Shown: positions 1 to 48,809, counted from the first letter of the stretch. The stretch: DNA of 49,272 bases from Clostridioides phage phiCD508 (OR295560.1); one strand, 5' to 3'. Notes: generated from the letters alone by a model not told the origin. Program-made: numbers and translations.

Positions 1-55
1 GAGGACGATATCTTACTTTTAATTGGAAGAGATAGAATGTTTAAGTTAGGAAGTA
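1..55. repeat. Terminal direct repeat, copy 1 (identical to 49218-49272)
   Basis: Bases 1-55 (gaggacgatatcttacttttaattggaagagatagaatgtttaagttaggaagta) recur exactly at the window end. This is either a circular-contig k=55 overlap or the att core. Confidence 0.9.
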
Positions 56-200
56 GTAATTATAGTTAGTTATTACTTTCTTTCACATATTTTTATTATT
101 TCAATAAGATTATTTCCAAATAATAATTTATTCAATGATAATAAGTAGAAAATAAAATTTTGAATCAATATAAAATTTAATGAAATGAGGTAGTAAAATC

Positions 201-719
201 ATGGATAAAAAAATAGACATAGCGAAGTTTATAGTAAATAGAATTGATTACTATATTGAAAAATCAGATAATAAAGCTAGTTTTTTACTATTATTAAATA
301 GCGCAATTATAGGTTTTTTATTTTCAGGGAAGGAAAAAATAATGAATCACTTAAGTATAAGTAATATCAGATGTTTAGAGATGCTATTTTACATTGTTAT
401 ATTATGTATATTTGTTATTTCAATTTATTTTTCGATTATGGTTTTAAAGCCAAGGAATTCTAAAATAGAAAATGAATATAAATCTATTTTTTATTATAAA
501 GAGATAGCATCTTTAAATAATGAACAGTACAAAGAAGCATTTGAAAATGCATTTAAAGACGAAGAAAACTTGATTAATGATGCACTTGTTCAAATAAAAG
601 AATTATCTTTAATCTGTGATAAGAAAATGTATAATGTAAAAAAGTCAGTAGAAGCTTTTATTTTAGGTGGTATTATATTGTTTATATATATACTTGTAGT
701 AGTTTTTAATGCTATTTAG
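201..719 (+). CDS. Small membrane protein with 3 predicted TM segments (possible SLATT/DUF4231-like pore-forming effector); convergent with the cyclase-Nudix gene
   Basis: 172 aa. Hydrophobic segments are ASFLLLLNSAIIGFLF, MLFYIVILCIFVISIYFSIMVL and a C-terminal AFILGGIILFIYILVVVFNAI. There is an amphipathic N-terminus and a helical middle. RBS is gaggtagtaaaatcATG. Confidence 0.5.
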   Translation: MDKKIDIAKFIVNRIDYYIEKSDNKASFLLLLNSAIIGFLFSGKEKIMNHLSISNIRCLEMLFYIVILCIFVISIYFSIMVLKPRNSKIENEYKSIFYYKEIASLNNEQYKEAFENAFKDEENLINDALVQIKELSLICDKKMYNVKKSVEAFILGGIILFIYILVVVFNAI

Positions 720-782
720 AAAATGTTTTATTTGGTTAGTATTCCTCTATGAAGATAGAATCAAATCATAGAAGAATACTAT

Positions 783-2369
783 TTACATATTTGTAGATTC
801 TTGTAATTGATTTTCATTTAATTTTTTAAATGCTAGTTTTAAAGTTTCTTTAAAATCAGGTACTGTGTTTTCATTAAAATCTTCAAGTTCATCCTCTCCT
901 ATCCATGCAAGTTCATTATGTTTTGATGTGGGTTCAAATTTAGAAATATCATAATCATTTATTATTTCTGCGAGAGTTATAATGCCTTTGTGTAAACCAT
1001 CACTTTTTTTAACTTGATAAATTGCTAGAGGTATAGGTTGGCAATCATCTTTTCTTGTGCAATCAGTAATAGGTTCAATGTTTATATTAAAATCTTTTTC
1101 ATATTCATCTTTAATAGTATTTATAATTGAAGTTTCTAGACTTGCCTTAGCACAACCAAATTCCCATTTACTCGCATTATTATTTCTATTATCACTTCTT
1201 TTCGCAATTAATATTTTTGAAGTTGATTTATTATAACAAACCGCAACACAGTGTAATTCCATTAAATCTACTTTTATATAGTCTTTATCTATTGTATTTT
1301 TATCATAACTGGGGTTTGTTTTAGAAATTACGTCACCTATTTTTTCAATCTTATCACTAAGGTTTCTGTCTATAAGTATTTTATCCAAAGCCTTGTCTAC
1401 AGAATTAAACATAAAAGAATCAATTAGTAATTTACTTTCTCCTTTTTTATTAAAAAAATATTCTCGAACCAATTCATTTTCTTCTATTTCATCAAAAGAA
1501 AAACTATCATCAAATTCTATATCATTATTTTTTCCTTTATTATGATACCAAATGATAGGGTATAGTTTATCTTTCCAGATACCCTTTAATTTTTTATATG
1601 TAATTATATGTAATTTAGATAAAATATCAGTTTTTCTTGATAATATATAAGCTAGTTCAAAACTAAGAACAAGTCTTTCTGGGCATGTTTGCTTTGATAT
1701 TCTGAAACCAGCATCAATATCATTTCCTAAGAACTCAAATATTTTATAATTATTGGATAAATCGTACATAGCAGAAATATTTTCATATTGTTCATTATTT
1801 TCTAAAGCATTAAAATTAGGATTTCTTGATACTATAGCAATCCAGGCCGCTCCTTTTAATGAAATAATATTTTGAAGTTTCATTAAGTATTTTTCAGATT
1901 CAGAAAATCCTTCTAGTGTAGAGAATATATTACCACTTTTTATATCTTTAGCAGTGCTTGTTAAAATATCAAAGATTATATCTATGTATTTATAAATTTC
2001 ATCATAATTTTTTAGTACGATAATGAAAATTACCTCATCACCAAGAACTCTCCAAAGTTGTGCTTTAAGGTTTTCATAAACTCTATATTGTAACTTACGA
2101 ATTATATGTGATAATACCTTAGCCCATCCGCTATAATTTATATTTTTATATAATGATGAATTAGCTATATCAAAAGAAAAGAACAAAATCACTTCTGGAT
2201 GATTAGGTTCTTTTTCTTTTTCATAAATATCAGTATTAATATTTTCTTGAAGTTTTTCCTTATACTTTTTAAGATTAAAAGCGTTTTCGTTTTTAGCTGA
2301 ATTATGAACATTATTTACATTTTGAGTTTTATATTCTTTATCATCTACCATTGTAAATATCCTAACCAT
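783..2369 (-). CDS. Two-domain protein: N-terminal class III nucleotidyl cyclase-like (CHD/palm) domain fused to a C-terminal degenerate Nudix-like domain
   Basis: 528 aa. FSFDIANSS then 44 residues to LGDEVIF matches the spacing of the two metal-binding Asp motifs of class III cyclases. FLGNDIDAGFRISKQTCPERLVLSFELAYIL resembles the (V/I)NxAARxE--hhVSe region. The C-terminal KILIAKRSDN..SKWEFGCAKASLETSIINTIKDEYEKDFNI..ELAWIGEDEL resembles a Nudix fold, but REx2EE is replaced by KDEYEKD. It overlaps the upstream peptidase gene by 25 nt. Confidence 0.5.
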   Translation of the reverse strand: MVRIFTMVDDKEYKTQNVNNVHNSAKNENAFNLKKYKEKLQENINTDIYEKEKEPNHPEVILFFSFDIANSSLYKNINYSGWAKVLSHIIRKLQYRVYENLKAQLWRVLGDEVIFIIVLKNYDEIYKYIDIIFDILTSTAKDIKSGNIFSTLEGFSESEKYLMKLQNIISLKGAAWIAIVSRNPNFNALENNEQYENISAMYDLSNNYKIFEFLGNDIDAGFRISKQTCPERLVLSFELAYILSRKTDILSKLHIITYKKLKGIWKDKLYPIIWYHNKGKNNDIEFDDSFSFDEIEENELVREYFFNKKGESKLLIDSFMFNSVDKALDKILIDRNLSDKIEKIGDVISKTNPSYDKNTIDKDYIKVDLMELHCVAVCYNKSTSKILIAKRSDNRNNNASKWEFGCAKASLETSIINTIKDEYEKDFNINIEPITDCTRKDDCQPIPLAIYQVKKSDGLHKGIITLAEIINDYDISKFEPTSKHNELAWIGEDELEDFNENTVPDFKETLKLAFKKLNENQLQESTNM

Positions 2370-2866
2370 TTCCCTCTATTAGATGCTGCATAAGAGGAAA
2401 CATTAAAGTATTCTGCAATTTTTGAAGTGTCGACCTTATTACCTACTGTGTTTTCATCCATAATTCTTTTATATTCATGTTTAGGCATCAACAAGGCTGC
2501 TGCAAATTCATTGGATTGATACTCCTTATTGGTATTGCCACTTCTAAAATACTGATTTCCATCTTGACTATTCCATAGTTCATCATCAATGCCATAACCC
2601 ATGTGTAAAAATAAATGTCCAAGTTCATGAGCAATGGTAAAATTCTTTCTGGTATCTGGTTGATAAGGAGATACCACTATTTCAAATGAATCATCAACTT
2701 TTCTAATAAATCCATCAGAGTATCCACTTAAAGAACTATCTTCTATTACCTTGCCTCCTAAAGCATCAACAACTTGATTTATATTTACTATTGGAATTTG
2801 GATTTTGTATGTTTGGATAATATCTTGGGTTATATCATTAATTAGCTCTCTGATTTTGAAATCCAT
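2345..2866 (-). CDS. ImmA/IrrE-family (DUF955) zinc metallopeptidase
   Basis: 173 aa with the HEXXH motif IAHELGHLFLH and the family-typical NEFAAALLMP segment. An extended -10 (tgatataat) lies about 60 nt upstream on the minus strand. The gene is translationally coupled to the downstream gene. Confidence 0.75.
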   Translation of the reverse strand: MDFKIRELINDITQDIIQTYKIQIPIVNINQVVDALGGKVIEDSSLSGYSDGFIRKVDDSFEIVVSPYQPDTRKNFTIAHELGHLFLHMGYGIDDELWNSQDGNQYFRSGNTNKEYQSNEFAAALLMPKHEYKRIMDENTVGNKVDTSKIAEYFNVSSYAASNRGKWLGYLQW

Positions 2867-3567
2867 AAAATCACATCCTTATATAATATTTTATTTAAAT
2901 AATTATTTATTATAATATTCATTATATCAAAAACTATTTTTTTTGGTACATTTAATATTAATTATTTTCATTAACCTTTTGTATTATACAATATAATTAT
3001 ACCATATAAAAACTGTTTTTTGTCGAATGTATGTTTGAAAAAATAAAAATTAGTAAATTATCTTAAAAATAATTAGATATACTTTGGAAGCAATAAGAAT
3101 ATTAACAATAAGATAAATCGTTGAAATACCAACATGTGTTAAATAATAACAATAAACAAATAATAAAATTTTAGATTTCAGAATATGAAAGAACCAAAAA
3201 ACGATTAACTAGTAATCTTAATTAAATTCATTTAGTTGATGTTAAAGTATGAAAACTATAGTAGAAGTTGTAATAATAAAACGAACGAAAATTATCATAC
3301 TAAAACATAATACATGCTATAATTGTATTAGATAAATGCTTGAATATATACCAAAAGTACTCTTTTTATAAGAGTGCTTATTTTTTTGAAATTCATCAAC
3401 ATATAAACTATCAAGAACATTACTCAACACACCTTAAAATTGATTTAAATTCTTTTTCATACACAAAGTTATATGATATAATAAAAAAGTAAATATGTAA
3501 CCCCAACACATCTTTACTAAGTCAAACATTATTATATAGAGCATTCTTCATTATGGAGAGTGCTTTT

Positions 3568-3756
3568 TCATTTCTTTGAATAATCATGTTGATTATTTAT
3601 AATATTTTCATTTAATTTATCTTTATCTATCAAATTTAATGCACAATTAATACAAATGTTAGTTTTCATATGACTTTTCTTATGAAAAGTAATATACTTA
3701 TTATCATCTTTATTTATTCCTTTATTACAGTAATCACATAATATAGTCTTAGTCAT
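3568..3756 (-). CDS. Small Cys-rich zinc-ribbon protein (hypothetical)
   Basis: 62 aa with CDYC..(37)..CINC. An isolated ORF inside a 1.8-kb AT-rich gene-poor stretch. Confidence 0.3.
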   Translation of the reverse strand: MTKTILCDYCNKGINKDDNKYITFHKKSHMKTNICINCALNLIDKDKLNENIINNQHDYSKK

Positions 3757-4015
3757 ATTTTTATTCCTTTCATTTTATATTTTCTATAATTAAGTTTAAC
3801 ATATTTAGTATATACCTATGTATATATATATTTAAAACAATGTTTTTTATTGCAATATAGAATATATTGTATAAATAAAAAATATGAAGAATAGATATTT
3901 GATAATTGTAAAATTATGTTATAATTAAAATGCAAGAATAATCTTGTGGAACTACAATCTAAGAGTGGAGCTTCATTTTCTACATTCCATCCCTTAAAAG
4001 GAAGGAGGTGGAGAA

Positions 4016-4156
4016 ATGAGCGAATTTTTACTAGGAGTGTTAGCTAGTTTAACAGCTAGCTTTATTACATATATTATTTCCAGAAAAGTAAAAAGCCACT
4101 CTGGCAGGAGTGACTTTGAGCTTGATGTAAAAATCAAGTTTAATAAAAAACGACAT
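4016..4156 (+). CDS. Small hydrophobic peptide, type I toxin-like (TM helix plus basic tail)
   Basis: 46 aa: MSEFLLGVLASLTASFITYIISRKVKSHSGRSDFELDVKIKFNKKRH. Strong RBS aaggaaggaggtggagaaATG. The ORF sits between about 30-bp inverted repeats (3947-3981 / 4168-4206), followed by a T-run. Confidence 0.4.
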
Positions 4157-4666
4157 TAATATTTAGTTAATGAAACTTCACTCTAGGCTAATAGATTGTA
4201 GTTTCTTTTTTTGTTTTTGATACGAATTTACATCTTTATTATATCGCATTTTGAGAAAAAATAAAACTATGAATATTAGAAATATATTTTATTTTATCTC
4301 TAAGTATATATATTATTAGCCACCTAAAAAACTTTCACAAAAACAAAAAGAGTATATGTTTTTGATAACTGGATGATATAACTTATAACTCATTTTACAA
4401 TTCTTAGTTCATATATATTTATGCCACTAAATTTCTCTAGTTTTGCCGATTTAGTTTTATTCTACAACTAAAATAATACAATAGAATTAGTTATTATTCA
4501 ACAGGATAGTTTGAAAGTTGAATAATTTTATAGAAATGAATAATATTTTACGCTTGAAAAAACAGACTAAATACGTAGAATATTTGGTAAAACTTACCTG
4601 TATTAATTGCAATTAGAAGGTTCTATTATTAATTTAAATTAAAATTAATTCAAGGAAGTGACATAA

Positions 4667-5056
4667 ATGGAACAACAAGATGTAATAGACAAACTACGTA
4701 GGGGCGAATTAATGCTAATGGAGTATTTGTGGAATAAAAAGTCTATTTTATCAAAAAAAGAAATAATAGAAGCAATGAAAAAGAGATATAAGTGGAGGAA
4801 AAGTACTACAGAAATTCTTTTAAAAAGATTGGTAAAGATGAAAACATTAAAAAAGAAGAGGATAGGTTTTCAGTTTAGCTATGAAGTATTAGTAACTAAA
4901 AAAGAATATTTAAATGCTAGAAAAGAAGAAAGAGATATAAGTAAATATGATAATTTTTTTGCACGAATATTCACAACTATACATAAAAGAGATAAGATGA
5001 CAGAAGAACAACTAAAGGCATTTATAAAAAATATGGAAAAAATTGGAAAAATATAA
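4667..5056 (+). CDS. BlaI/MecI/CopY-family (penicillinase-repressor type) winged-helix regulator
   Basis: 129 aa; SKKEIIEAMKKRYKWRKSTTEILLKRLVKMKTLKKKRIGFQFSYEVLVTKKEYL is a BlaI-like N-terminal DNA-binding domain. A perfect 12-bp palindrome TAATTGCAATTA lies about 60 bp upstream (4597-4608). Confidence 0.6.
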   Translation: MEQQDVIDKLRRGELMLMEYLWNKKSILSKKEIIEAMKKRYKWRKSTTEILLKRLVKMKTLKKKRIGFQFSYEVLVTKKEYLNARKEERDISKYDNFFARIFTTIHKRDKMTEEQLKAFIKNMEKIGKI

Positions 5057-5148
5057 TTTATATATATCAATTAATTTTAAATTAAATTTGTTATAATATT
5101 TATATATATTTTAATATGCAGAAATTTACAAAAAAGGGGGTGCATATT

Positions 5149-5529
5149 ATGGGATTTAAAAAATTACCTGATTCAGAATTAAAAGTAATGAAGTTTATCT
5201 GGGGATTAGAAAAAAAAGTAGCTTCAGGAGAAGTTGTAGAAGCTATGAAACAAACTTATGGTTGGAATAAAAATACAACACTAACAATATTGTCTAAGCT
5301 TGCAAAGAAAAACTATTTGTATTCTCAAAAAACAAGCAAGTGTACATATTATACTATCGCTGTAAGAGAAAAAGATTATTTAAAAGTTGAAACAAAAAAA
5401 TTCTTTAGTTTTTTTCATAATAATTCTTTAAAAAGTTTTTTCACTGCTTTAAATGATGAAGAAAATTTAAGTGATGATAAATTAGATATGTTAGAGGAAT
5501 GGGTGAAAAATTGGGAAGAAGATGAATAA
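5149..5529 (+). CDS. Second BlaI/MecI/CopY-family regulator (paralogue; ORF track starts at 5116, likely start is ATG 5149)
   Basis: MGFKKLPDSELKVMKFIWG...YGWNKNTTLTILSKLAKKNYLYSQKTSKCTYYTIAVREKDYL. RBS is aaaagggggtg before ATG 5149. Confidence 0.6.
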   Translation: MGFKKLPDSELKVMKFIWGLEKKVASGEVVEAMKQTYGWNKNTTLTILSKLAKKNYLYSQKTSKCTYYTIAVREKDYLKVETKKFFSFFHNNSLKSFFTALNDEENLSDDKLDMLEEWVKNWEEDE

Positions 5530-5535
5530 AATGAA

Positions 5536-5556
5536 TGTGATACTAAAATGATACTA
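5536..5556. repeat. 21-bp direct repeat tgtgatactaaaatgatacta, copy 1 (attP arm-site candidate)
   Basis: Exact repeat of 5728-5748. Additional aatatagaaa repeats lie between the two copies. Confidence 0.6.
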
Positions 5557-5679
5557 ATATGTTTTATAGCGTGTTAAAAAATATAGAAAATATAGAAATA
5601 ATAGAAGAAAATTAATGTAATAGATAAGGTTTTATCAGATTAAAAAGAAAATCAATAGAATGGGAATAGTAAATAAAAA

Positions 5680-5716
5680 AGTCGTAAGCCTTGTATTTTC
5701 AAGGTTTGCGACTTTT
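5680..5716. terminator. Bidirectional rho-independent terminator between the BlaI-like gene and int
   Basis: 14-bp stem agtcgtaagccttg/caaggtttgcgact with a tattttc loop, flanked by an A-run upstream and tttaaaaaaa downstream. Confidence 0.6.
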
Positions 5717-5727
5717 AAAAAAATCTT

Positions 5728-5748
5728 TGTGATACTAAAATGATACTA
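5728..5748. repeat. 21-bp direct repeat tgtgatactaaaatgatacta, copy 2 (overlaps the int stop codon)
   Basis: Exact match to 5536-5556. Confidence 0.6.
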
Positions 5749-6807
5749 TATATTTAAATTATCTAGTTTTTGGGCAACTTCAAGTTGCTTATTTGGGTAT
5801 AAATGTGAATATGTATTCCAAGTTGTTTCTACTTTTTCATGCCCCAATCTTTCTGCTATAGTTAATATATTTACATCCATATTTACCAATAATGACGCAT
5901 GAGAATGTCTCAAATCATGCACTCTAATTCTTTTTACATTAGATAACTTACAGCATCTATCTAGCTCTTTAGAAAGATAACTTTTAGCAAATTTAAATAT
6001 TCTTTCATTATCTTTTAAGTCATATAGCTTAGATAGATAATCTTTTATATTATTATATAAGAAATGTGGGATAGGGACAACACGTTTACTTTTAGGAGTT
6101 TTAGGAGAAGAAACAATATCCTCTCCATTTAGTCTTATGTAGCTTTTTTCGACGCTTATTTTATTTTCGAAAATATCTTTTGGAGTAAGAGCTAACAACT
6201 CCCCTAGTCTAAGACCTGTCCAAAATAAAATTTCAAATGCTAGTCTAGGTTCTGATTTCTTTTCAAATTCAATAAATTTTTTAAACTCTTCTAATGTCCA
6301 AAAGTTCATTTCATCTGCGTTTTTTTTACCGATAGAACCTGCCAAATGAGCAGGATTAGAAGGCAAGTTATAATATTTAACTGCATAATTTAATACAGCA
6401 ACAAGCTGGTTGTTTATCGTTTTAATATATGTTTGGCTATAATCACTTTTTAATAATTCGTTTTGCCATCTTCTTATATGTGTTGCAGTAATTTCATTTA
6501 TTTTTAGACTTTTAAAAAAAGGTAAAATTCTAAAGTTTATTAAATACTTTTTAGTTTCTAATGTAGATAATTTTAATCTAGAAGACATATCGTGCATGTA
6601 TTCTTCTATGAGACTTTCAAAACTCATATCAGTACTCATTTTAGATTTATTCAAAAATTCTCTTTCAAACTCTAGAGCTTCTTTTTTAGTTTTAAAACCT
6701 CTCTTAATTTTCTTTTTCCTATCCCCATCGAAGTCTGTAAAATAAAAGCTAGCATACCAACTTTTTCTTTGTTCGTCTTTGTAAGCAGGCATTTTAGACA
6801 CCCCCAA
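5746..6807 (-). CDS. int: Tyrosine integrase/site-specific recombinase (TTG start at 6807 or ATG at 6792)
   Basis: 353 aa. The C-terminal catalytic region HDLRHSHASLLVNMDVNILTIAERLGHEKVETTWNTYSHLY carries the R..HxxR..Y signature. It has an N-terminal SAM-like domain. Confidence 0.9.
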   Translation of the reverse strand: MGVSKMPAYKDEQRKSWYASFYFTDFDGDRKKKIKRGFKTKKEALEFEREFLNKSKMSTDMSFESLIEEYMHDMSSRLKLSTLETKKYLINFRILPFFKSLKINEITATHIRRWQNELLKSDYSQTYIKTINNQLVAVLNYAVKYYNLPSNPAHLAGSIGKKNADEMNFWTLEEFKKFIEFEKKSEPRLAFEILFWTGLRLGELLALTPKDIFENKISVEKSYIRLNGEDIVSSPKTPKSKRVVPIPHFLYNNIKDYLSKLYDLKDNERIFKFAKSYLSKELDRCCKLSNVKRIRVHDLRHSHASLLVNMDVNILTIAERLGHEKVETTWNTYSHLYPNKQLEVAQKLDNLNI

Positions 6808-6868
6808 TTATGTCATTTTAATATTACAATAATTATAACATGTTAGATATGCTATCTAAATAATTGTT

Positions 6869-7084
6869 TTATTTTCCTCTTCTTTTTATTTCTTGAAGCT
6901 TGTAATATTTACACAGTTCTAAGAAGTCTTCTTCTAGTGCTATAGATAAGTCTAATATCGTAGATATACCTATATCTTTGTACTCTTGATTTTCTAGTTT
7001 TGATATATAACTTCTGTTACGTCTCATTTTTTCTGCTAATTCTAGTTGTGTCATTCTTTTCTTTTTTCTTAATTTTTTCAACAT
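6869..7084 (-). CDS. XRE-family HTH transcriptional regulator
   Basis: 71 aa; HTH is MTQLELAEKMRRNRSYISKLENQ. Confidence 0.55.
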   Translation of the reverse strand: MLKKLRKKKRMTQLELAEKMRRNRSYISKLENQEYKDIGISTILDLSIALEEDFLELCKYYKLQEIKRRGK

Positions 7085-7154
7085 TTATTAAAATCCACCT
7101 TTTAATTATTTTTATGACATTTTTATAATTAATAGTTTGTGTAATTTCTTGTAA

Positions 7155-7179
7155 AAAATGTTCCTCATTAGAACATTTT
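7155..7179. promoter_or_regulatory. Perfect 9-bp inverted repeat AAAATGTTC-N7-GAACATTTT (operator candidate)
   Basis: Seen directly in the sequence, upstream of the 6869..7084 HTH gene. Confidence 0.4.
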
Positions 7180-7214
7180 TTGGTGGAAAAATGTGTTAAA
7201 ATGTAAGTAAGAAA

Positions 7215-7245
7215 AGCACTTTCAAAGCACTATAAAAATAGTGCT
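7215..7245. promoter_or_regulatory. AGCACT half-site cluster including the perfect palindrome AGCACTATAAAAATAGTGCT (operator candidate)
   Basis: Three AGCACT/AGTGCT half-sites within 31 bp. Confidence 0.4.
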
Positions 7246-7495
7246 GAAATAGATAAACAAATAAAAGTAATAAGGAGGAAAGATAGATTCTAGAGGGAAA
7301 TCATTATCATTTTTAAGAACGTATGTTCAGTTGGTGGGATAGAAAAATACTTTACAGGGGATGGTTTATTTGAATGAGAATGAAAATATGAGTTTATATG
7401 TCAGTAAGTTAAAAGAAGTATTGAAAAATAATTCAGAAGAGTATAAAAAAATAAGAGCTAAAATAAATGAAATTTATAATCTAAATGAAAAGAAA

Positions 7496-7523
7496 GAATA
7501 AAAGGGCTTTAGCTCTTTTATTC
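7496..7523. terminator. Hairpin gaataaaag-ggctttagc-cttttattc (bidirectional terminator at the 3' end of the repressor gene)
   Basis: 9-bp perfect stem, followed by a T-rich run. Confidence 0.5.
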
Positions 7524-7934
7524 TTTCTTAGTATTAACTGCTTTATAATAAGCATTATCTATCATTTTTTTTATTGCATTTTTATCATCTGAATCTAAAG
7601 ATGCTAATCTATTTATTAGTTCGTTAACTTCATTATCTTCTTTTGAGTTAACTTTTTTTAATAATTCATCATCTTGTTGAGTGTTAGGTTGTATTTTACC
7701 TAATTTAGTTAATAGCTCCTTTAAAGTTAAATTTAATCCAAAACTCATTTTTTCAAGCATATCTAAAGTAGGTTCAACAGCTTTACCATTCCTTGGGTCT
7801 CTGTTTTTTTCTATCTTATCTATATATGTATGGCTCACACCACAAAGATTAGAAAATTCTCTAAGAGATAAGTTATGTTCACTTCTATATTCTTTAATAA
7901 TTTCTGCTAATGTTTGCATAATTTCACACCTCAC
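7518..7934 (-). CDS. CI-like phage repressor (XRE HTH, no S24 peptidase domain)
   Basis: 138 aa. HTH is LSLREFSNLCGVSHTYIDKIEKN. It is the first gene of the leftward operon, facing a divergent cro-like gene. Confidence 0.7.
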   Translation of the reverse strand: MRCEIMQTLAEIIKEYRSEHNLSLREFSNLCGVSHTYIDKIEKNRDPRNGKAVEPTLDMLEKMSFGLNLTLKELLTKLGKIQPNTQQDDELLKKVNSKEDNEVNELINRLASLDSDDKNAIKKMIDNAYYKAVNTKKE

Positions 7935-8023
7935 CTAAATAATAGTTGACTTAATTATATCAGAAAAATGTAAACTATTGTTAACAAAAATAAAAATTTA
8001 GTAAAAAATAATTGACAAGAGTA

Positions 8024-8052
8024 AAAAAAAGACGTATACTATGATTAACAAA
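8024..8052 (+). promoter_or_regulatory. Sigma-A type promoter (PR-like) driving the cro-like gene
   Basis: TTGACA (8024-8029), 17-nt spacer, TATACT (8047-8052). RBS aggaggg at 8071-8077. Confidence 0.55.
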
Positions 8053-8083
8053 AAGGTTATAAATAAAGTTAGGAGGGATTAAT

Positions 8084-8296
8084 ATAAAAAATAATTTACA
8101 ATATATTAGAAAAGAATCTAGAATATCACAAAAAAAATTCGCTGATAAGATAGGTATATCAAGACCGTATTTATCTAGAATAGAAAACGGTAAGGTTAAT
8201 CCGAGTTTAGAAATAGCGCATAAAATCTCGCTCGAAACAGGGAAAACAATAAATGAAATTTTTTTTGATTTTACTGTAAATCATAGTAAACTATAA
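8084..8296 (+). CDS. Cro-like XRE HTH protein with an apparent non-AUG start (ATA 8084 or ATT 8078)
   Basis: The frame is open from 8063 to TAA 8294-8296 and encodes ...ISQKKFADKIGISRPYLSRIENGKVNPSLEIAHKISLETGKTINEIF, a canonical HTH_3. There is no in-frame ATG/GTG/TTG after the RBS. Confidence 0.45.
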   Translation: MKNNLQYIRKESRISQKKFADKIGISRPYLSRIENGKVNPSLEIAHKISLETGKTINEIFFDFTVNHSKL

Positions 8297-8590
8297 GGTT
8301 TTAATTGTACCTTGAAAACTAAATATAAAATATTTTAAAGGAGCAAGTATATGAAAAATAAAGAAAAAGAAATAATCATTAGAGGAATTTTAATAGGAAT
8401 TTTTTATTTTTTAGGAATTGTATTTAGTAATACTTTTTTTAAATAATAAATAGAAGGGGTAGGTGAAATACCAACTCCCCAAATCAAAATAACACTTTGG
8501 AAGTTAAATATAGAATATTCAAAAGAGGTGATTAGATGGAAATAGAGCAAACAACAATACGCCTGCTAAAAAGCAGACGAAAGTTGAATA

Positions 8591-8809
8591 TTAATTTCTA
8601 TTTTGGTTAGGCGAAAGACCTAACAAAAAATCTGTAGATACATTAAGTTTGTTAGAAATTAATATTAAAGTTTCTATATTTGGCTCTCTTGAACCCGATT
8701 CATAATATTGATATGCACGTTCTGAGATACCAAACAAACTAGCAAATTGCTTTTGAGTCATATTCATTTGCTTTCTTACTAGCTTAATATTATCTTTGAA
8801 TTTAGTCAT
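8591..8809 (-). CDS. XRE-family HTH repressor (start at the internal ATG 8809 of the 8591..8938 ORF)
   Basis: MTKFKDNIKLVRKQMNMTQKQFASLFGISERAYQYYESG... Confidence 0.6.
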   Translation of the reverse strand: MTKFKDNIKLVRKQMNMTQKQFASLFGISERAYQYYESGSREPNIETLILISNKLNVSTDFLLGLSPNQNRN

Positions 8810-8845
8810 AACTACACGCTCCAATAAAAAAATAAATAAATTTCT

Positions 8846-8904
8846 TGACACGAACAATATTAGCGTGTAATATATAAAACATAGCACGAACAATATTGGC
8901 GTGT
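8846..8904. promoter_or_regulatory. Divergent switch region: -35 TTGACA / -10 TAATAT promoter with two 20-bp operator copies
   Basis: The operator copies are cACGAACAATATTaGCGTGt and cACGAACAATATTgGCGTGt, each with inverted ends ACACG..CGTGT. Copy 1 spans the promoter spacer. Confidence 0.55.
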
Positions 8905-8921
8905 TAAATAAAAAGGAGAGG

Positions 8922-9116
8922 GTGAAAATAAATAACAATTTAAAACTACAACGTGAAAAAGTTGGCTTAACGCAATTAGAGGTTGCTCAAAAAGCCAAAA
9001 TAACAGAGAGAAGCTATCAATATTATGAAGCTGGCGAACGTCTCCCAAACATTCGTACAGCTTTAAAGATAGCTAGAATTTTAAATACTAATTGTGAAAA
9101 ACTCTTTAATGAATAA
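8922..9116 (+). CDS. XRE-family HTH protein (GTG start after RBS aaaaggagag)
   Basis: VKINNNLKLQREKVGLTQLEVAQKAKITERSYQYYEAGERLPNIRTALKIARIL. Confidence 0.6.
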   Translation: MKINNNLKLQREKVGLTQLEVAQKAKITERSYQYYEAGERLPNIRTALKIARILNTNCEKLFNE

Positions 9117-47538: not shown

Positions 47539-47970
47539 ATGAATTTAACAATAGTTTTTTTAGCAACAAATATATTTATAAAATTAGTAATATTAGCAAT
47601 AGCATTTGATACACTGTTAGGTTGCTTAAGAGCAATAAAAACACATCAGTTTAACTCAAGTTTTGGAATAAATGGTGGAATAAGAAAAGTCGCAATGATA
47701 GCATGTATATTTTTTCTAGCAGTAGTTGACATTCTTACAAAGTTTAACTTTTTATTTATGTTACCACAAGATTGGGTTGATTTCTTACGACTAAATCATC
47801 TTGGAATATCTGAATTTTTCTCTATTTTATTTATTCTATATGAAAGTGTAAGTATATTAAAAAACATGTATTTGTGTGGGTTACCAGTGCCTAAAAAATT
47901 AAAAGATAGAATAGGTAACTTATTAGATACTATGACAGATGAATTAAATGTTAAAGGAGGTAGTAAATAA
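47539..47970 (+). CDS. Holin (multi-TM, TcdE/phage holin-like)
   Basis: 143 aa with 3-4 TM segments, directly upstream of and overlapping the endolysin start. Confidence 0.6.
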   Translation: MNLTIVFLATNIFIKLVILAIAFDTLLGCLRAIKTHQFNSSFGINGGIRKVAMIACIFFLAVVDILTKFNFLFMLPQDWVDFLRLNHLGISEFFSILFILYESVSILKNMYLCGLPVPKKLKDRIGNLLDTMTDELNVKGGSK

Positions 47971-48809
47971 TGAAAATATGTATAACAGTAGGACACAGTA
48001 TTTTAAAAAGCGGAGCATGTACTTCTGCTGATGGAGTAGTTAACGAGTATCAATACAATAAATCTCTTGCCCCAGTGTTAGCAGATAGATTTAAAAAAGA
48101 AGGTCATAAGGCAGATGTAATAATATGCCCAGAAAAGCAGTTCAAAACTAAGGACGAGGAAAAGACTTATAAAATACCTAGAGTTAATAGTGGAGGATAT
48201 GACTTACTTATAGAGTTGCATTTAAATTCAAGTGGTGTAGGAGCTTTTGGAACAGAATTATTTTACTATAGTGAAAAAGGGAAGGAATATGCGCAGAGGG
48301 TGGTAGATAAACTGTCTAAACCTTTCATAAGAAAAAAAGGAGATAAAGAAGTAGGTAATAGAGGTGCTAAATTAGATAAAAGTTTATATATTTTAAATAG
48401 TTCTAAACCTACTGCAATACTAATTGAAAGTTTCTTCTGTGATAATAAAGAAGATTATGAGAAAGCTAAGAAACTAGGTCATGAAGGTATTGCTAAGTTA
48501 ATTGTAGAAGGTGTATTAAATAAAAATATAAATAATGAGGGAGTTAAACAGATGTACAAACATACAATTGTTTATGATGGAGAAGTTGATAAGATACTTG
48601 CGAATGTGCTTAGTTGGGGCTATAGTCCAAGCAAAGTTTTAGTTTGTGATATAAAAGATTACGTACCAGGTCAGACGGAAAATTTATATGTTGTAGGAGG
48701 TGGCGCATGTGAAAAGATAAGTTCTATTACTAAAGAAAAATTTATTATGATAAAAGGTAATGATAGATTTGATACACTTTATAAAGCATTGGATTTTATT
48801 AATAGATAG
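47970..48809 (+). CDS. Endolysin, N-acetylmuramoyl-L-alanine amidase (Amidase_3) with a C-terminal binding domain
   Basis: MKICITVGHSILKSGACTSADGVVNEYQYNKSLAPVLA...GGYDLLIELHLNSS; the N-terminus closely resembles the C. difficile phage endolysin CD27L as I recall it. Confidence 0.9.
   Translation: MKICITVGHSILKSGACTSADGVVNEYQYNKSLAPVLADRFKKEGHKADVIICPEKQFKTKDEEKTYKIPRVNSGGYDLLIELHLNSSGVGAFGTELFYYSEKGKEYAQRVVDKLSKPFIRKKGDKEVGNRGAKLDKSLYILNSSKPTAILIESFFCDNKEDYEKAKKLGHEGIAKLIVEGVLNKNINNEGVKQMYKHTIVYDGEVDKILANVLSWGYSPSKVLVCDIKDYVPGQTENLYVVGGGACEKISSITKEKFIMIKGNDRFDTLYKALDFINR

Follow-up and report, generated by a model that had tools for sequence, protein, structure and literature searches.

The window analysed here is the whole stretch of 49,272 nucleotides (nt) from Clostridioides phage phiCD508 (OR295560.1). 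Near its start lie three genes, encoding a membrane protein, a fusion of a nucleotidyl-cyclase-like and a Nudix-like domain, and a zinc metallopeptidase. As judged from sequence comparison and predicted structures, this region is probably a self-contained three-gene abortive-infection cassette of the Pycsar type, based on cyclic mononucleotides (cNMP) and carried as phage cargo. The features of the locus are as follows.

201..719, plus strand: PycTM-family membrane effector of 172 amino acids (aa), convergent to the other two genes
783..2369, minus strand: open reading frame (ORF) of the cyclase-Nudix fusion protein, 528 aa from the ATG at 2369 or 522 aa from Met7 (ATG at 2351)
1500..2204, minus strand: predicted class III nucleotidyl-cyclase-fold domain of the fusion, residues about 56-290
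1305..1499, minus strand: helical linker of the fusion (residues about 291-355), after which residues 356-371 form a flexible stretch of low confidence (AlphaFold2 model)
786..1256, minus strand: Nudix-fold domain of the fusion (residues about 372-528), its catalytic box degenerate
2345..2866, minus strand: ImmA/IrrE/CapP-type M78 zinc metallopeptidase of 173 aa, limited to the catalytic core; its gene overlaps that of the fusion
2867..3010, minus strand: putative promoter region of the peptidase-cyclase operon (hexamer pairs; weak evidence)

An earlier sequence-only reading of this DNA had placed a nucleotide-signalling block at 201-2933. Its three ORFs are present as it described them, including the 25 nt shared by the two minus-strand genes (2345-2369) and the convergent gap of 63 nt between the PycTM and fusion genes (720-782); only the outer limit shifts, as position 2933 lies 67 nt past the peptidase start codon at 2866. 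All motifs quoted in that reading were also recovered in program translations. In the peptidase, IAHELGHLFLH spans residues 78-88. In the fusion, FDIANSS contains D67 and LGDEVIF contains D111, exactly 44 residues apart, followed by GNDIDAGFRIS (215-225) and RLVLSFE (232-238), and the Nudix half contains KWEFGCAK (401-408) and IKDEYEKD (419-426). The fusion gene is preceded by a GAGGG Shine-Dalgarno sequence. Use of the conserved Met7 as an alternative start (ATG 2351) would give a protein of 522 aa and a 7-nt overlap within ATGGTAG, so that the two genes overlap whichever start is used; overlaps of 25 nt (24 loci) and 7 nt (22 loci) are the two commonest classes among homologous loci.

By sequence, the 172-aa protein is a PycTM effector of the Pycsar type. 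It matched the Pfam family PF18967 (PycTM) with E = 3e-12 and 47.3 bits against a cut-off of 27.2, and the PADLOC PycTM model PDLC02364 with E = 2.9e-31. As a control we used the canonical Pycsar system of C. botulinum plasmid pCLK, which consists of PycTM and a 244-aa annotated cyclase; its PycTM gave the same best PADLOC model. Of the three hydrophobic helices that had been noticed earlier, two are strong segments (residues 64-82 and 154-172) and the third is weaker (about 27-43), a pattern that fits the description of the family as having three transmembrane segments ('3TM'; 10.64898/2026.08.12.744502). For the PycTM family, a role as anti-phage effector has been established by experiment (PMC11224242; 10.64898/2026.08.12.744502). 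The likeness to SLATT/DUF4231 proteins that had been suggested for the 172-aa protein was rejected, given that a Pfam scan at E values up to 1 returned PycTM and no SLATT family. With a PycTM effector at the locus, the analogy to Pycsar is much stronger than the sequence-only reading had assumed, and this protein is very probably the effector of the cyclase encoded in the convergent fusion gene.

The cyclase itself escapes sequence searches. The 528-aa protein had no cyclase, GGDEF or AGS_C match in Pfam, NCBIfam or PADLOC, which returned faint Nudix hints only. A Pfam scan of 69 relatives at E values up to 1 recovered Guanylate_cyc, GGDEF and AGS_C in 0 of 69 each; the comparison with Guanylate_cyc and GGDEF that had been proposed as a check of the cyclase assignment was thus negative for the protein and its relatives alike. 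AGS_C (PF18134) was not found either when separate segments of the fusion, the linker region included, were scanned against Pfam at E values up to 10, and the family profile gave only weak MutT matches among the sequences of the Protein Data Bank (PDB). Membership in the PycC sequence family (PycC hidden Markov models or PF00211) was detected neither by Pfam, for the window protein and the 69 relatives, nor by PADLOC, for the window protein. As a positive control, the C. botulinum PycC matched nine PADLOC PycC models (best E = 4e-95).

Predicted structure gave a clear picture of the fold. The AlphaFold2 model of the fusion, built on the 69-sequence alignment, reached a mean predicted local distance difference test score (pLDDT) of 87.8 and a predicted template modelling score of 0.76. 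In this model the order of the fusion is class III cyclase domain, helical linker, flexible stretch and Nudix fold. Searched with Foldseek, the N-terminal domain matched not an unrelated fold but best the class III cyclase CyaC (E = 3e-9, template modelling score (TM) 0.79). The class III architecture and the metal-binding Asp pair that had been proposed for this half thus gained support from the model and from the profile alignment that follows.

For this alignment, a query profile was built from the N-terminal domains of 238 sequences, the most distant of which share 26% identity with the window protein, and was compared by hhalign with a profile of 12 class III cyclases, consisting of AC5-C1, AC2-C2, nine bacterial class III enzymes from plasmids and the C. 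botulinum PycC. The first two of these were checked against the PDB: AC2-C2 is identical to 1CUL_B across 201 residues and AC5-C1 matches residues 1-189 of 1CJK_A. The two profiles aligned over 169 columns with a score of 24.8 (P = 0.006). Controls scored lower: 30 column shuffles gave 8.1-16.1, the reversed profile 13.9 and the Nudix half as query 9.3. Both the 12-sequence cyclase alignment and the wider 238-sequence family profile were needed for this result; the single AC5-C1 or AC2-C2 sequences gave short spurious alignments only.

In the alignment, D67 and D111 fall on the metal-binding residues D396 and D440 of AC5, i.e. on the canonical positions, and R223 falls on R1029 of AC2, the transition-state arginine of helix alpha4. 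The base-selecting residues K938 and D1018 of AC2 correspond to R107 and E212, and its transition-state residue N1025, an Asn in canonical enzymes, corresponds to D219. Further motif residues of the domain are W106, G110, E112, G215, D217, G221 and F222. Among the 238 sequences, W106, G110, D111, G215, D219, G221 and R223 were present in all, E112 in 237 and D67 in 236, and position 107 was Arg in 184 and Lys in 54. The transition-state arginine is thus found throughout, and the transition-state asparagine, expected four residues before R223, is replaced by Asp in 238 of 238. In class III cyclases the two metal-binding Asp residues lie on strand beta1 and on the beta2-beta3 hairpin; in the AlphaFold2 model D67 stands at the end of strand 59-69 and D111 at the hairpin between 104-109 and 112-118. 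In solved PycC structures the base-selecting residue precedes the second Asp by four positions (EaPycC R142, AnPycC K104, BcPycC D94; PMC11224242), and R107 occupies the position of EaPycC R142. The second metal Asp is followed by an almost invariant Glu, forming a G110-D111-E112 hairpin (2034-2042) that recalls the GG(D/E)EF motif of diguanylate cyclases; class III enzymes usually carry a small residue there. Together with Asp for Asn at position 219, this G-D-E motif hints at altered metal or substrate handling.

The conserved Asp pair and Arg pattern appear to be those expected of an active enzyme, and model and conservation together make it likely that the fusion is an active cyclase. Alternatively, the domain could be a non-catalytic pseudo-cyclase that binds nucleoside triphosphates (NTP), with PycTM being controlled by protein contact or proteolysis and no cNMP being made. 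We consider this improbable, as both metal Asp residues and the catalytic Arg are retained in 236 to 238 of 238 sequences down to 26% identity, which is typical of an active enzyme, and as the partner effector is of the family found in Pycsar and Pucsar, both of which produce cNMP.

Between the two domains of the fusion, the model shows helices at residues 294-350 and a dip in pLDDT to 56-64 around residues 351-370; this linker region had no match to any Pfam family. The C-terminal domain has the alpha/beta/alpha fold of Nudix proteins, with 3grn as best Foldseek match (TM 0.76), and the profile of the fusion family aligned to MutT with E = 0.002. Its Nudix box (GX5EX7REUXEEXGU) is degenerate: D421, K425 and T413 stand at the positions of R14, E18 and E6, and across the family position 421 varies (E in 89 sequences, K in 30, D in 28), as does position 425 (E in 66, K in 63). 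Nearly invariant in this half are W402, F404, G405, C406, Y423, P447, Y451 and G462. The sequence-only reading had recognised a Nudix fold with a degenerated REx2EE box, and it was right on both counts, the fold being seen by Foldseek and the box residues being lost or variable. A natural variant of 365 aa (locus L103) that lacks the Nudix domain keeps both the overlapping upstream peptidase gene and the downstream PycTM gene, and the domain is therefore accessory rather than part of the core. The pattern of conservation tips the balance slightly towards a non-catalytic, regulatory Nudix-like domain. An active hydrolase, which would degrade the cNMP or NTP precursor or deplete nucleotides as a second effector, is unlikely in view of the lost R14, the variable E18 and E6 next to invariant fold and pocket residues, and the persistence of peptidase and PycTM beside the Nudix-less variant. 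NrtR and the NUDT9-H domain of TRPM2 are examples of non-catalytic Nudix-fold sensor domains; the output here is a nucleotide cyclase, and the likeness is one of fold and logic only.

The third protein matched Pfam Peptidase_M78 with E = 2e-18 and, as its best PADLOC model, capP with E = 3.6e-25, covering positions 5-149 of 242. The residues H80-E81-x-x-H84, E115, N119 and E120 were invariant in 47 peptidase homologues. The AlphaFold2 model of the peptidase had a pLDDT of 90.8, and its best solved matches were CapP (7t5t) and IrrE/PprI (3dti, 8slm and 8sln, the last being a complex of PprI with single-stranded DNA (ssDNA)). Solved relatives measure 240-280 aa, and the 173-aa protein corresponds to their catalytic core; TM normalised on CapP was 0.37. 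Fourteen PADLOC models of RmrA also matched, as did the spr1629 repressor/antitoxin family. Both the assignment as an ImmA-like peptidase with an HEXXH motif and the likeness to CapP that had been drawn from the sequence were thereby corroborated, and the absence of a helix-turn-helix (HTH) partner was likewise confirmed: an adjacent CapH-like HTH repressor was found neither in the window nor as a conserved gene across 61 loci. For CapP and IrrE/PprI, the activating cue is ssDNA or DNA damage (PMC13373217).

These results bear on the possibility that the peptidase is a CapP-type regulator that cuts a distant or unrecognised repressor, thereby raising expression of a two-gene Pycsar after DNA damage and leaving the cyclase untouched. 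CapP provides both the best PADLOC model and the best structural match, and CapH+CapP pairs are reported beside Pycsar operons (PMC13373217). Nevertheless we give this explanation little weight: the 173-aa protein lacks the C-terminal part of the capP profile, no CapH-like gene accompanies it, and it is encoded inside the operon and not in a separate upstream regulator pair, its gene running into that of the cyclase at 57 of 58 loci.

The three genes belong together well beyond this phage. An exhaustive profile search with the fusion family yielded 1,967 clusters at 50% identity (E up to 1e-3), of which at least 427 remained at a threshold of E = 1e-30. The 150 best matches were almost all fusions of 450-530 aa, and neither canonical cyclases nor bridging sequences were among them. 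A pattern-seeded scan of one genome per species gave 62 loci, and the gene set recurs in 60 species-level genomes; this recurrence, together with the identity among phages described below, indicates that the cassette does not consist of chance ORFs. Most loci are from Lachnospiraceae and other gut Clostridia, and others from Leptotrichia, Odoribacter, Megasphaera, Melainabacteria, Mycoplasmatota, Floricoccus, Sarcina and Romboutsia. Linkage was scored with iterated hidden Markov models at 58 loci for the peptidase and 50 loci for PycTM. All 58 scorable loci have the peptidase gene immediately upstream of the fusion gene and in the same orientation, and in 57 of them the two overlap. A neighbouring PycTM gene was seen at 43 of 50 loci (about 86%): directly downstream on the same strand in 41, convergent in one (Sarcina, next to an integrase, as in the phage) and upstream in one; it is absent from five loci and unscorable in two because of masked DNA. 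The linkage supposed by the sequence-only reading is therefore conserved among homologues, and independent contigs with precomputed Pfam calls showed the same operon of Peptidase_M78, fusion and PycTM. A fourth conserved gene was not found, the commonest flanking family occurring at 9 of 61 loci. Together, these data indicate that the peptidase-cyclase pair is the invariant core and that PycTM is its usual output.

The loci lie in housekeeping neighbourhoods, in islands with recombinases, transposases and HipA, and beside a ThsA-like SIR2 gene. In the latter case (L003-L006, 8188-11265), the ThsA-like SIR2 gene (PADLOC E = 1e-36) and a gene for an unassigned 562-aa protein follow within 2 kb 3' of the module, and one variant adds a BrnT toxin, so that a small defence cluster is formed. 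In loci without PycTM, the search for swapped effectors turned up only truncations, masked DNA and unrelated membrane proteins. At L013/L049 (7555-8709), a 384-aa multi-pass membrane protein without Pfam or PADLOC match is encoded about 100 nt 3' of the fusion gene, in the usual place of PycTM, and may be an alternative effector or unrelated.

Some of these contexts could also be those of a toxin-antitoxin-like addiction or stress module that stabilises mobile elements, with the peptidase acting as an antitoxin-like component. The matches of the peptidase to models of the RosmerTA antitoxin (RmrA) and to the spr1629 repressor/antitoxin family point in this direction, as does the occurrence of the module on prophages and next to recombinases, transposases and HipA. 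The cassette is, however, also found alone between housekeeping genes without mobile-element markers, and its PycTM component belongs to an established anti-phage family, so that we see only a small chance for such a module as the full explanation; addiction and anti-phage roles are not mutually exclusive.

We also compared the window with related C. difficile temperate phages. Positions 1-4000 are 100% identical to phiC2 and phiCDHM19, and more than 99.8% identical to CDKM9 and phiCD27. At the far end of the window, a holin gene (47539..47970) abuts an endolysin gene (47970..48809), which places the module between the lysis genes on one side and the integrase on the other, as had been stated. 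The genes of phiC2 are arranged as holin, AbiD, endolysin, p39, PycTM, fusion, peptidase, p43, two CopY/BlaI-like regulators and integrase. The AbiD-family abortive-infection gene of phiC2 (p37; L079, 1676-2539; PADLOC E = 7e-95) lies between holin and endolysin, where the window has no AbiD-type insert. In the module's slot, phiMMP02 carries two unrelated genes, gp35 and gp36, encoding 163 and 188 aa (L080, 3848-4907). These gave no Pfam or PADLOC match and could represent another cargo system; as they remain unassigned, describing the slot as a defence hotspot rests only on the module and the AbiD gene of phiC2.

The window is a mosaic of these phages. Positions 1-4000 correspond to phiC2, and the integrase (5746..6807), the CI-like repressor (7518..7934) and the first BlaI-like regulator (4667..5056) are identical at the protein level to those of phiMMP02 (353/353, 138/138 and 129/129 residues, respectively) and differ from phiC2. 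A recombination junction is therefore placed between about 3250 and 4667. The two regulators between module and integrase (4667..5056 and 5116..5529) are tandem BlaI/CopY winged-helix proteins (phrog_1077) with no cognate BlaR/MecR sensor protease nearby. Hence phiMMP02 has the same integrase, repressor and first BlaI-like regulator without the module, and phiC2 has the identical module with an integrase of 30% identity and with no match to the CI-like repressor in the 13-kb stretch searched. Module and lysogeny switch thus assort independently, the module being exchangeable cargo.

This independent assortment argues that the peptidase is not the anti-repressor protease of this phage. The sequence-only reading had considered that it might act as such on the CI-like repressor at 7518..7934 or on the BlaI-like regulators, with the cyclase-Nudix protein feeding into the lysis/lysogeny decision. 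ImmA-type M78 peptidases classically cleave repressors of phages or of integrative and conjugative elements, the CI-like repressor has no S24 domain, and in Leptospira phage LE1 a related peptidase-cyclase pair sits in the immunity region beside CI. Nevertheless, phiMMP02 keeps an identical CI-like repressor with neither module nor peptidase, phiC2 carries the identical module with no match to this repressor in the stretch searched, and across 58 bacterial loci the peptidase goes with the cyclase and not with a repressor, no HTH gene being conserved nearby. The anti-repressor explanation was accordingly rejected as highly improbable.

Non-coding DNA around the cassette was scanned for regulatory elements. 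Promoter-like hexamer pairs were found on the minus strand at 3010-2983 and 2930-2902, each with 10 of 12 matches. In this AT-rich DNA the scan as a whole was at chance level (48 sites observed, 44.8 expected), and the promoter assignment is therefore a suggestion only. An Rfam scan of 1-9000 gave no match. No terminator was called between the convergent genes; the 63-nt gap contains an imperfect inverted repeat (742-752 / 766-776) with 11-nt arms, TTCCTCTATGA and TCATAGAAGAA, one mismatch and a 13-nt loop, which the terminator scan missed because the stem is AT-rich and which may serve as a weak bidirectional terminator. On the 5' side of the peptidase gene, about 700 bp (2867..3567) are intergenic, with no ORF of at least 60 aa and no Rfam match, which is unusually long for a compact phage genome; positions 3001-4000 are very AT-rich (about 20% GC). 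Terminator-like hairpins on the plus strand at 3355-3379 and 3538-3566 are followed downstream by a gene on the minus strand (3568..3756) for a 62-aa protein with CxxC...CxxC cysteine pairs (phrog_2569). Phages share this gene at 100% conservation whether or not they carry the module, and it therefore lies outside the module.

Taken together, we propose the following course of events for the cassette, whose role in defence or abortive infection we regard, by analogy with Pycsar, as reasonably likely. When another phage infects a lysogen, a homodimer of the cyclase would convert NTP to a 3',5'-cNMP, probably a pyrimidine nucleotide, given the PycTM partner and the Arg at the base-selecting position as in the cyclic CMP synthase EaPycC. 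PycTM would bind the cNMP and disrupt the membrane, so that the cell would die or halt growth before the invading phage matures; this death or growth arrest would protect the lysogen population. The Nudix-like domain would act as a non-catalytic nucleotide-binding regulator or sensor that binds a nucleotide cue or restrains the cyclase. The peptidase would be the switch, triggered by a DNA-damage or ssDNA cue like ImmA, IrrE and CapP. Since no repressor partner is present and the peptidase gene overlaps that of the cyclase, its target would be a protein of the module rather than an HTH repressor, the likeliest candidate being the fusion, cut in its variable N-terminal tail or in the flexible linker (351-371). 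Proteolytic action on the fusion, proposed by analogy, is the weakest step of this scheme, and we put it forward as a tentative suggestion. The further idea of a protease-gated cyclase as the core of the system, in which an ImmA/CapP-like peptidase senses infection, for instance by way of ssDNA, and licenses by proteolysis a cryptic class III cyclase held by a pseudo-Nudix sensor, is rather unlikely in this full form. Mobility and a defence context of the module are suggested by its presence in phiC2, phiCDHM19, CDKM9 and phiCD27, its replacement in phiMMP02 and its location beside recombinases and beside the ThsA-like SIR2 gene.

Several observations weigh against the proposed cassette or parts of it. 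No sequence model recognises the cyclase, be it Pfam or the PycC models of PADLOC, and the probability that hhalign itself assigned to the profile alignment was only 6%; the cyclase assignment therefore rests on predicted structure and motif conservation. The invariant D219 and E112 could mean that chemistry or product differs from that of known cyclases. Neither the N-terminal tail nor the linker of the fusion showed a conserved cleavage motif. Many chromosomal copies lie among housekeeping genes and not in defence islands. Moreover, 5 to 7 of the 50 loci are without an adjacent PycTM, and these include the widespread P0116 lineage of gut Lachnospiraceae (L104-L106, L018, L020; 214 contig-index blocks), in which peptidase and an intact 512-aa fusion are accompanied by a convergent DUF2079 membrane protein in place of PycTM. 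The spirochaete temperate phage LE1 has only the peptidase and a cyclase (L111, 84-1799; gp81 and gp80): the peptidase belongs to the same subfamily (E = 1e-31), and the cyclase is a 394-aa cyclase-only relative with the same motifs, with neither Nudix domain nor PycTM. The core pair of peptidase and cyclase can therefore persist without PycTM.

We know of no report of how infection activates Pycsar cyclases, and the Pycsar and Pucsar literature examined gave no explanation for this step. The variant described here has two candidates for a sensor or regulator built into it, namely the dedicated protease and the pseudo-Nudix domain, so that activation of a Pycsar-type cyclase becomes directly testable. 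If the protease-gated reading were true, it would be the first proteolytic switch-on of second-messenger synthesis in cNMP immunity and would explain in concrete terms how phage is detected by a cyclase of the Pycsar type, and the P0116 lineage and LE1 would feed the same signal to other receptors. The invariant exchange of Asn for Asp and the G-D-E hairpin additionally make an unusual cyclase chemistry or product possible. Neither Pfam nor PADLOC detects the large fusion family. Defence-annotation tools in present use would therefore list no more than a PycTM without partner and an isolated CapP, and miss the system in gut Clostridia. Finally, the module is carried by the well-studied C. difficile temperate phages phiC2, phiCD27, phiCDHM19 and CDKM9. 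Their lysogens may be protected from other phages, a point of relevance to phage therapy and to competition among prophages in C. difficile.

Comparison with known systems places the cassette next to, but not within, those described. This architecture was not found in our literature searches, to which subscription-only papers and DefenseFinder updates did not belong, in agreement with the earlier statement that the combination is not recognised as a described system. Among systems with an M78 peptidase, CapH+CapP pairs regulate CBASS, Pycsar and other immune operons (Lau et al. 2022, as summarised in PMC13373217) and share with the cassette the association of such a peptidase with nucleotide-signalling immunity; they differ by the CapH HTH protein, which is lacking here, by a length of about 240-280 aa compared with the core-only 173 aa, and by the location of the peptidase gene, which is here inside the operon and overlaps the cyclase gene. 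This arrangement makes a transcriptional repressor an improbable substrate. ImmA/ImmR and IrrE(PprI)/DdrO share the peptidase family, the invariant HExxH...E and, in the case of ImmA, a similar size, whereas the peptidase here is unlinked to a repressor and assorts independently of the CI-like one. In RosmerTA, likewise a defence system, an M78 peptidase accompanies a toxic partner; RmrA is, however, about 360-400 aa long with an N-terminal HTH, only its peptidase part aligns (for example positions 139-263 of 380), and the cassette has no RmrT homologue.

The closest relatives in overall logic are the immune cNMP cyclases, which a recent survey divides into Pycsar-1, Pycsar-2, Pycsar-3, Pycsar-like-4 and Pucsar (10.64898/2026.08.12.744502). 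Subclades of Pycsar and Pucsar use the same pJV1-spdB3 effector with three transmembrane segments (PycTM/PucTM), Pycsar-2 cyclases have N- and C-terminal extensions and transmembrane effectors only, and Pycsar-like-4 is associated with a JAB peptidase; the survey mentions neither a Nudix fusion nor an M78 peptidase (10.64898/2026.08.12.744502). The C-terminal extension of Pycsar-2, AGS-C, is a mainly helical domain (PMC7288161), in contrast to the Nudix fold of the present family, in 69 members of which AGS_C was undetected. With Pycsar proper (PMC11224242) the cassette shares a class III-fold cyclase gene beside a PycTM effector gene, the effector being best matched by the same PADLOC model as that of the clostridial Pycsar, and further the metal Asp pair and a basic residue four positions before the second Asp, as in EaPycC and AnPycC. 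It differs in that the cyclase lies outside all PycC, Pfam and PADLOC models, nine of which match the clostridial PycC, so that PycC family membership is lacking; in that the cyclase is extended at its N-terminus, carries at its C-terminus a Nudix-like domain joined by a helical linker, and has Asp for the catalytic Asn; and in that it comprises three genes, with the overlapping M78 peptidase obligatory, in place of the two genes of Pycsar. Judged from sequence and modelled structure, the cassette is a real, conserved and previously unannotated variant of cNMP-based anti-phage signalling, and its novelty lies in the combination of a cryptic cyclase clade, a pseudo-Nudix fusion and a dedicated protease.

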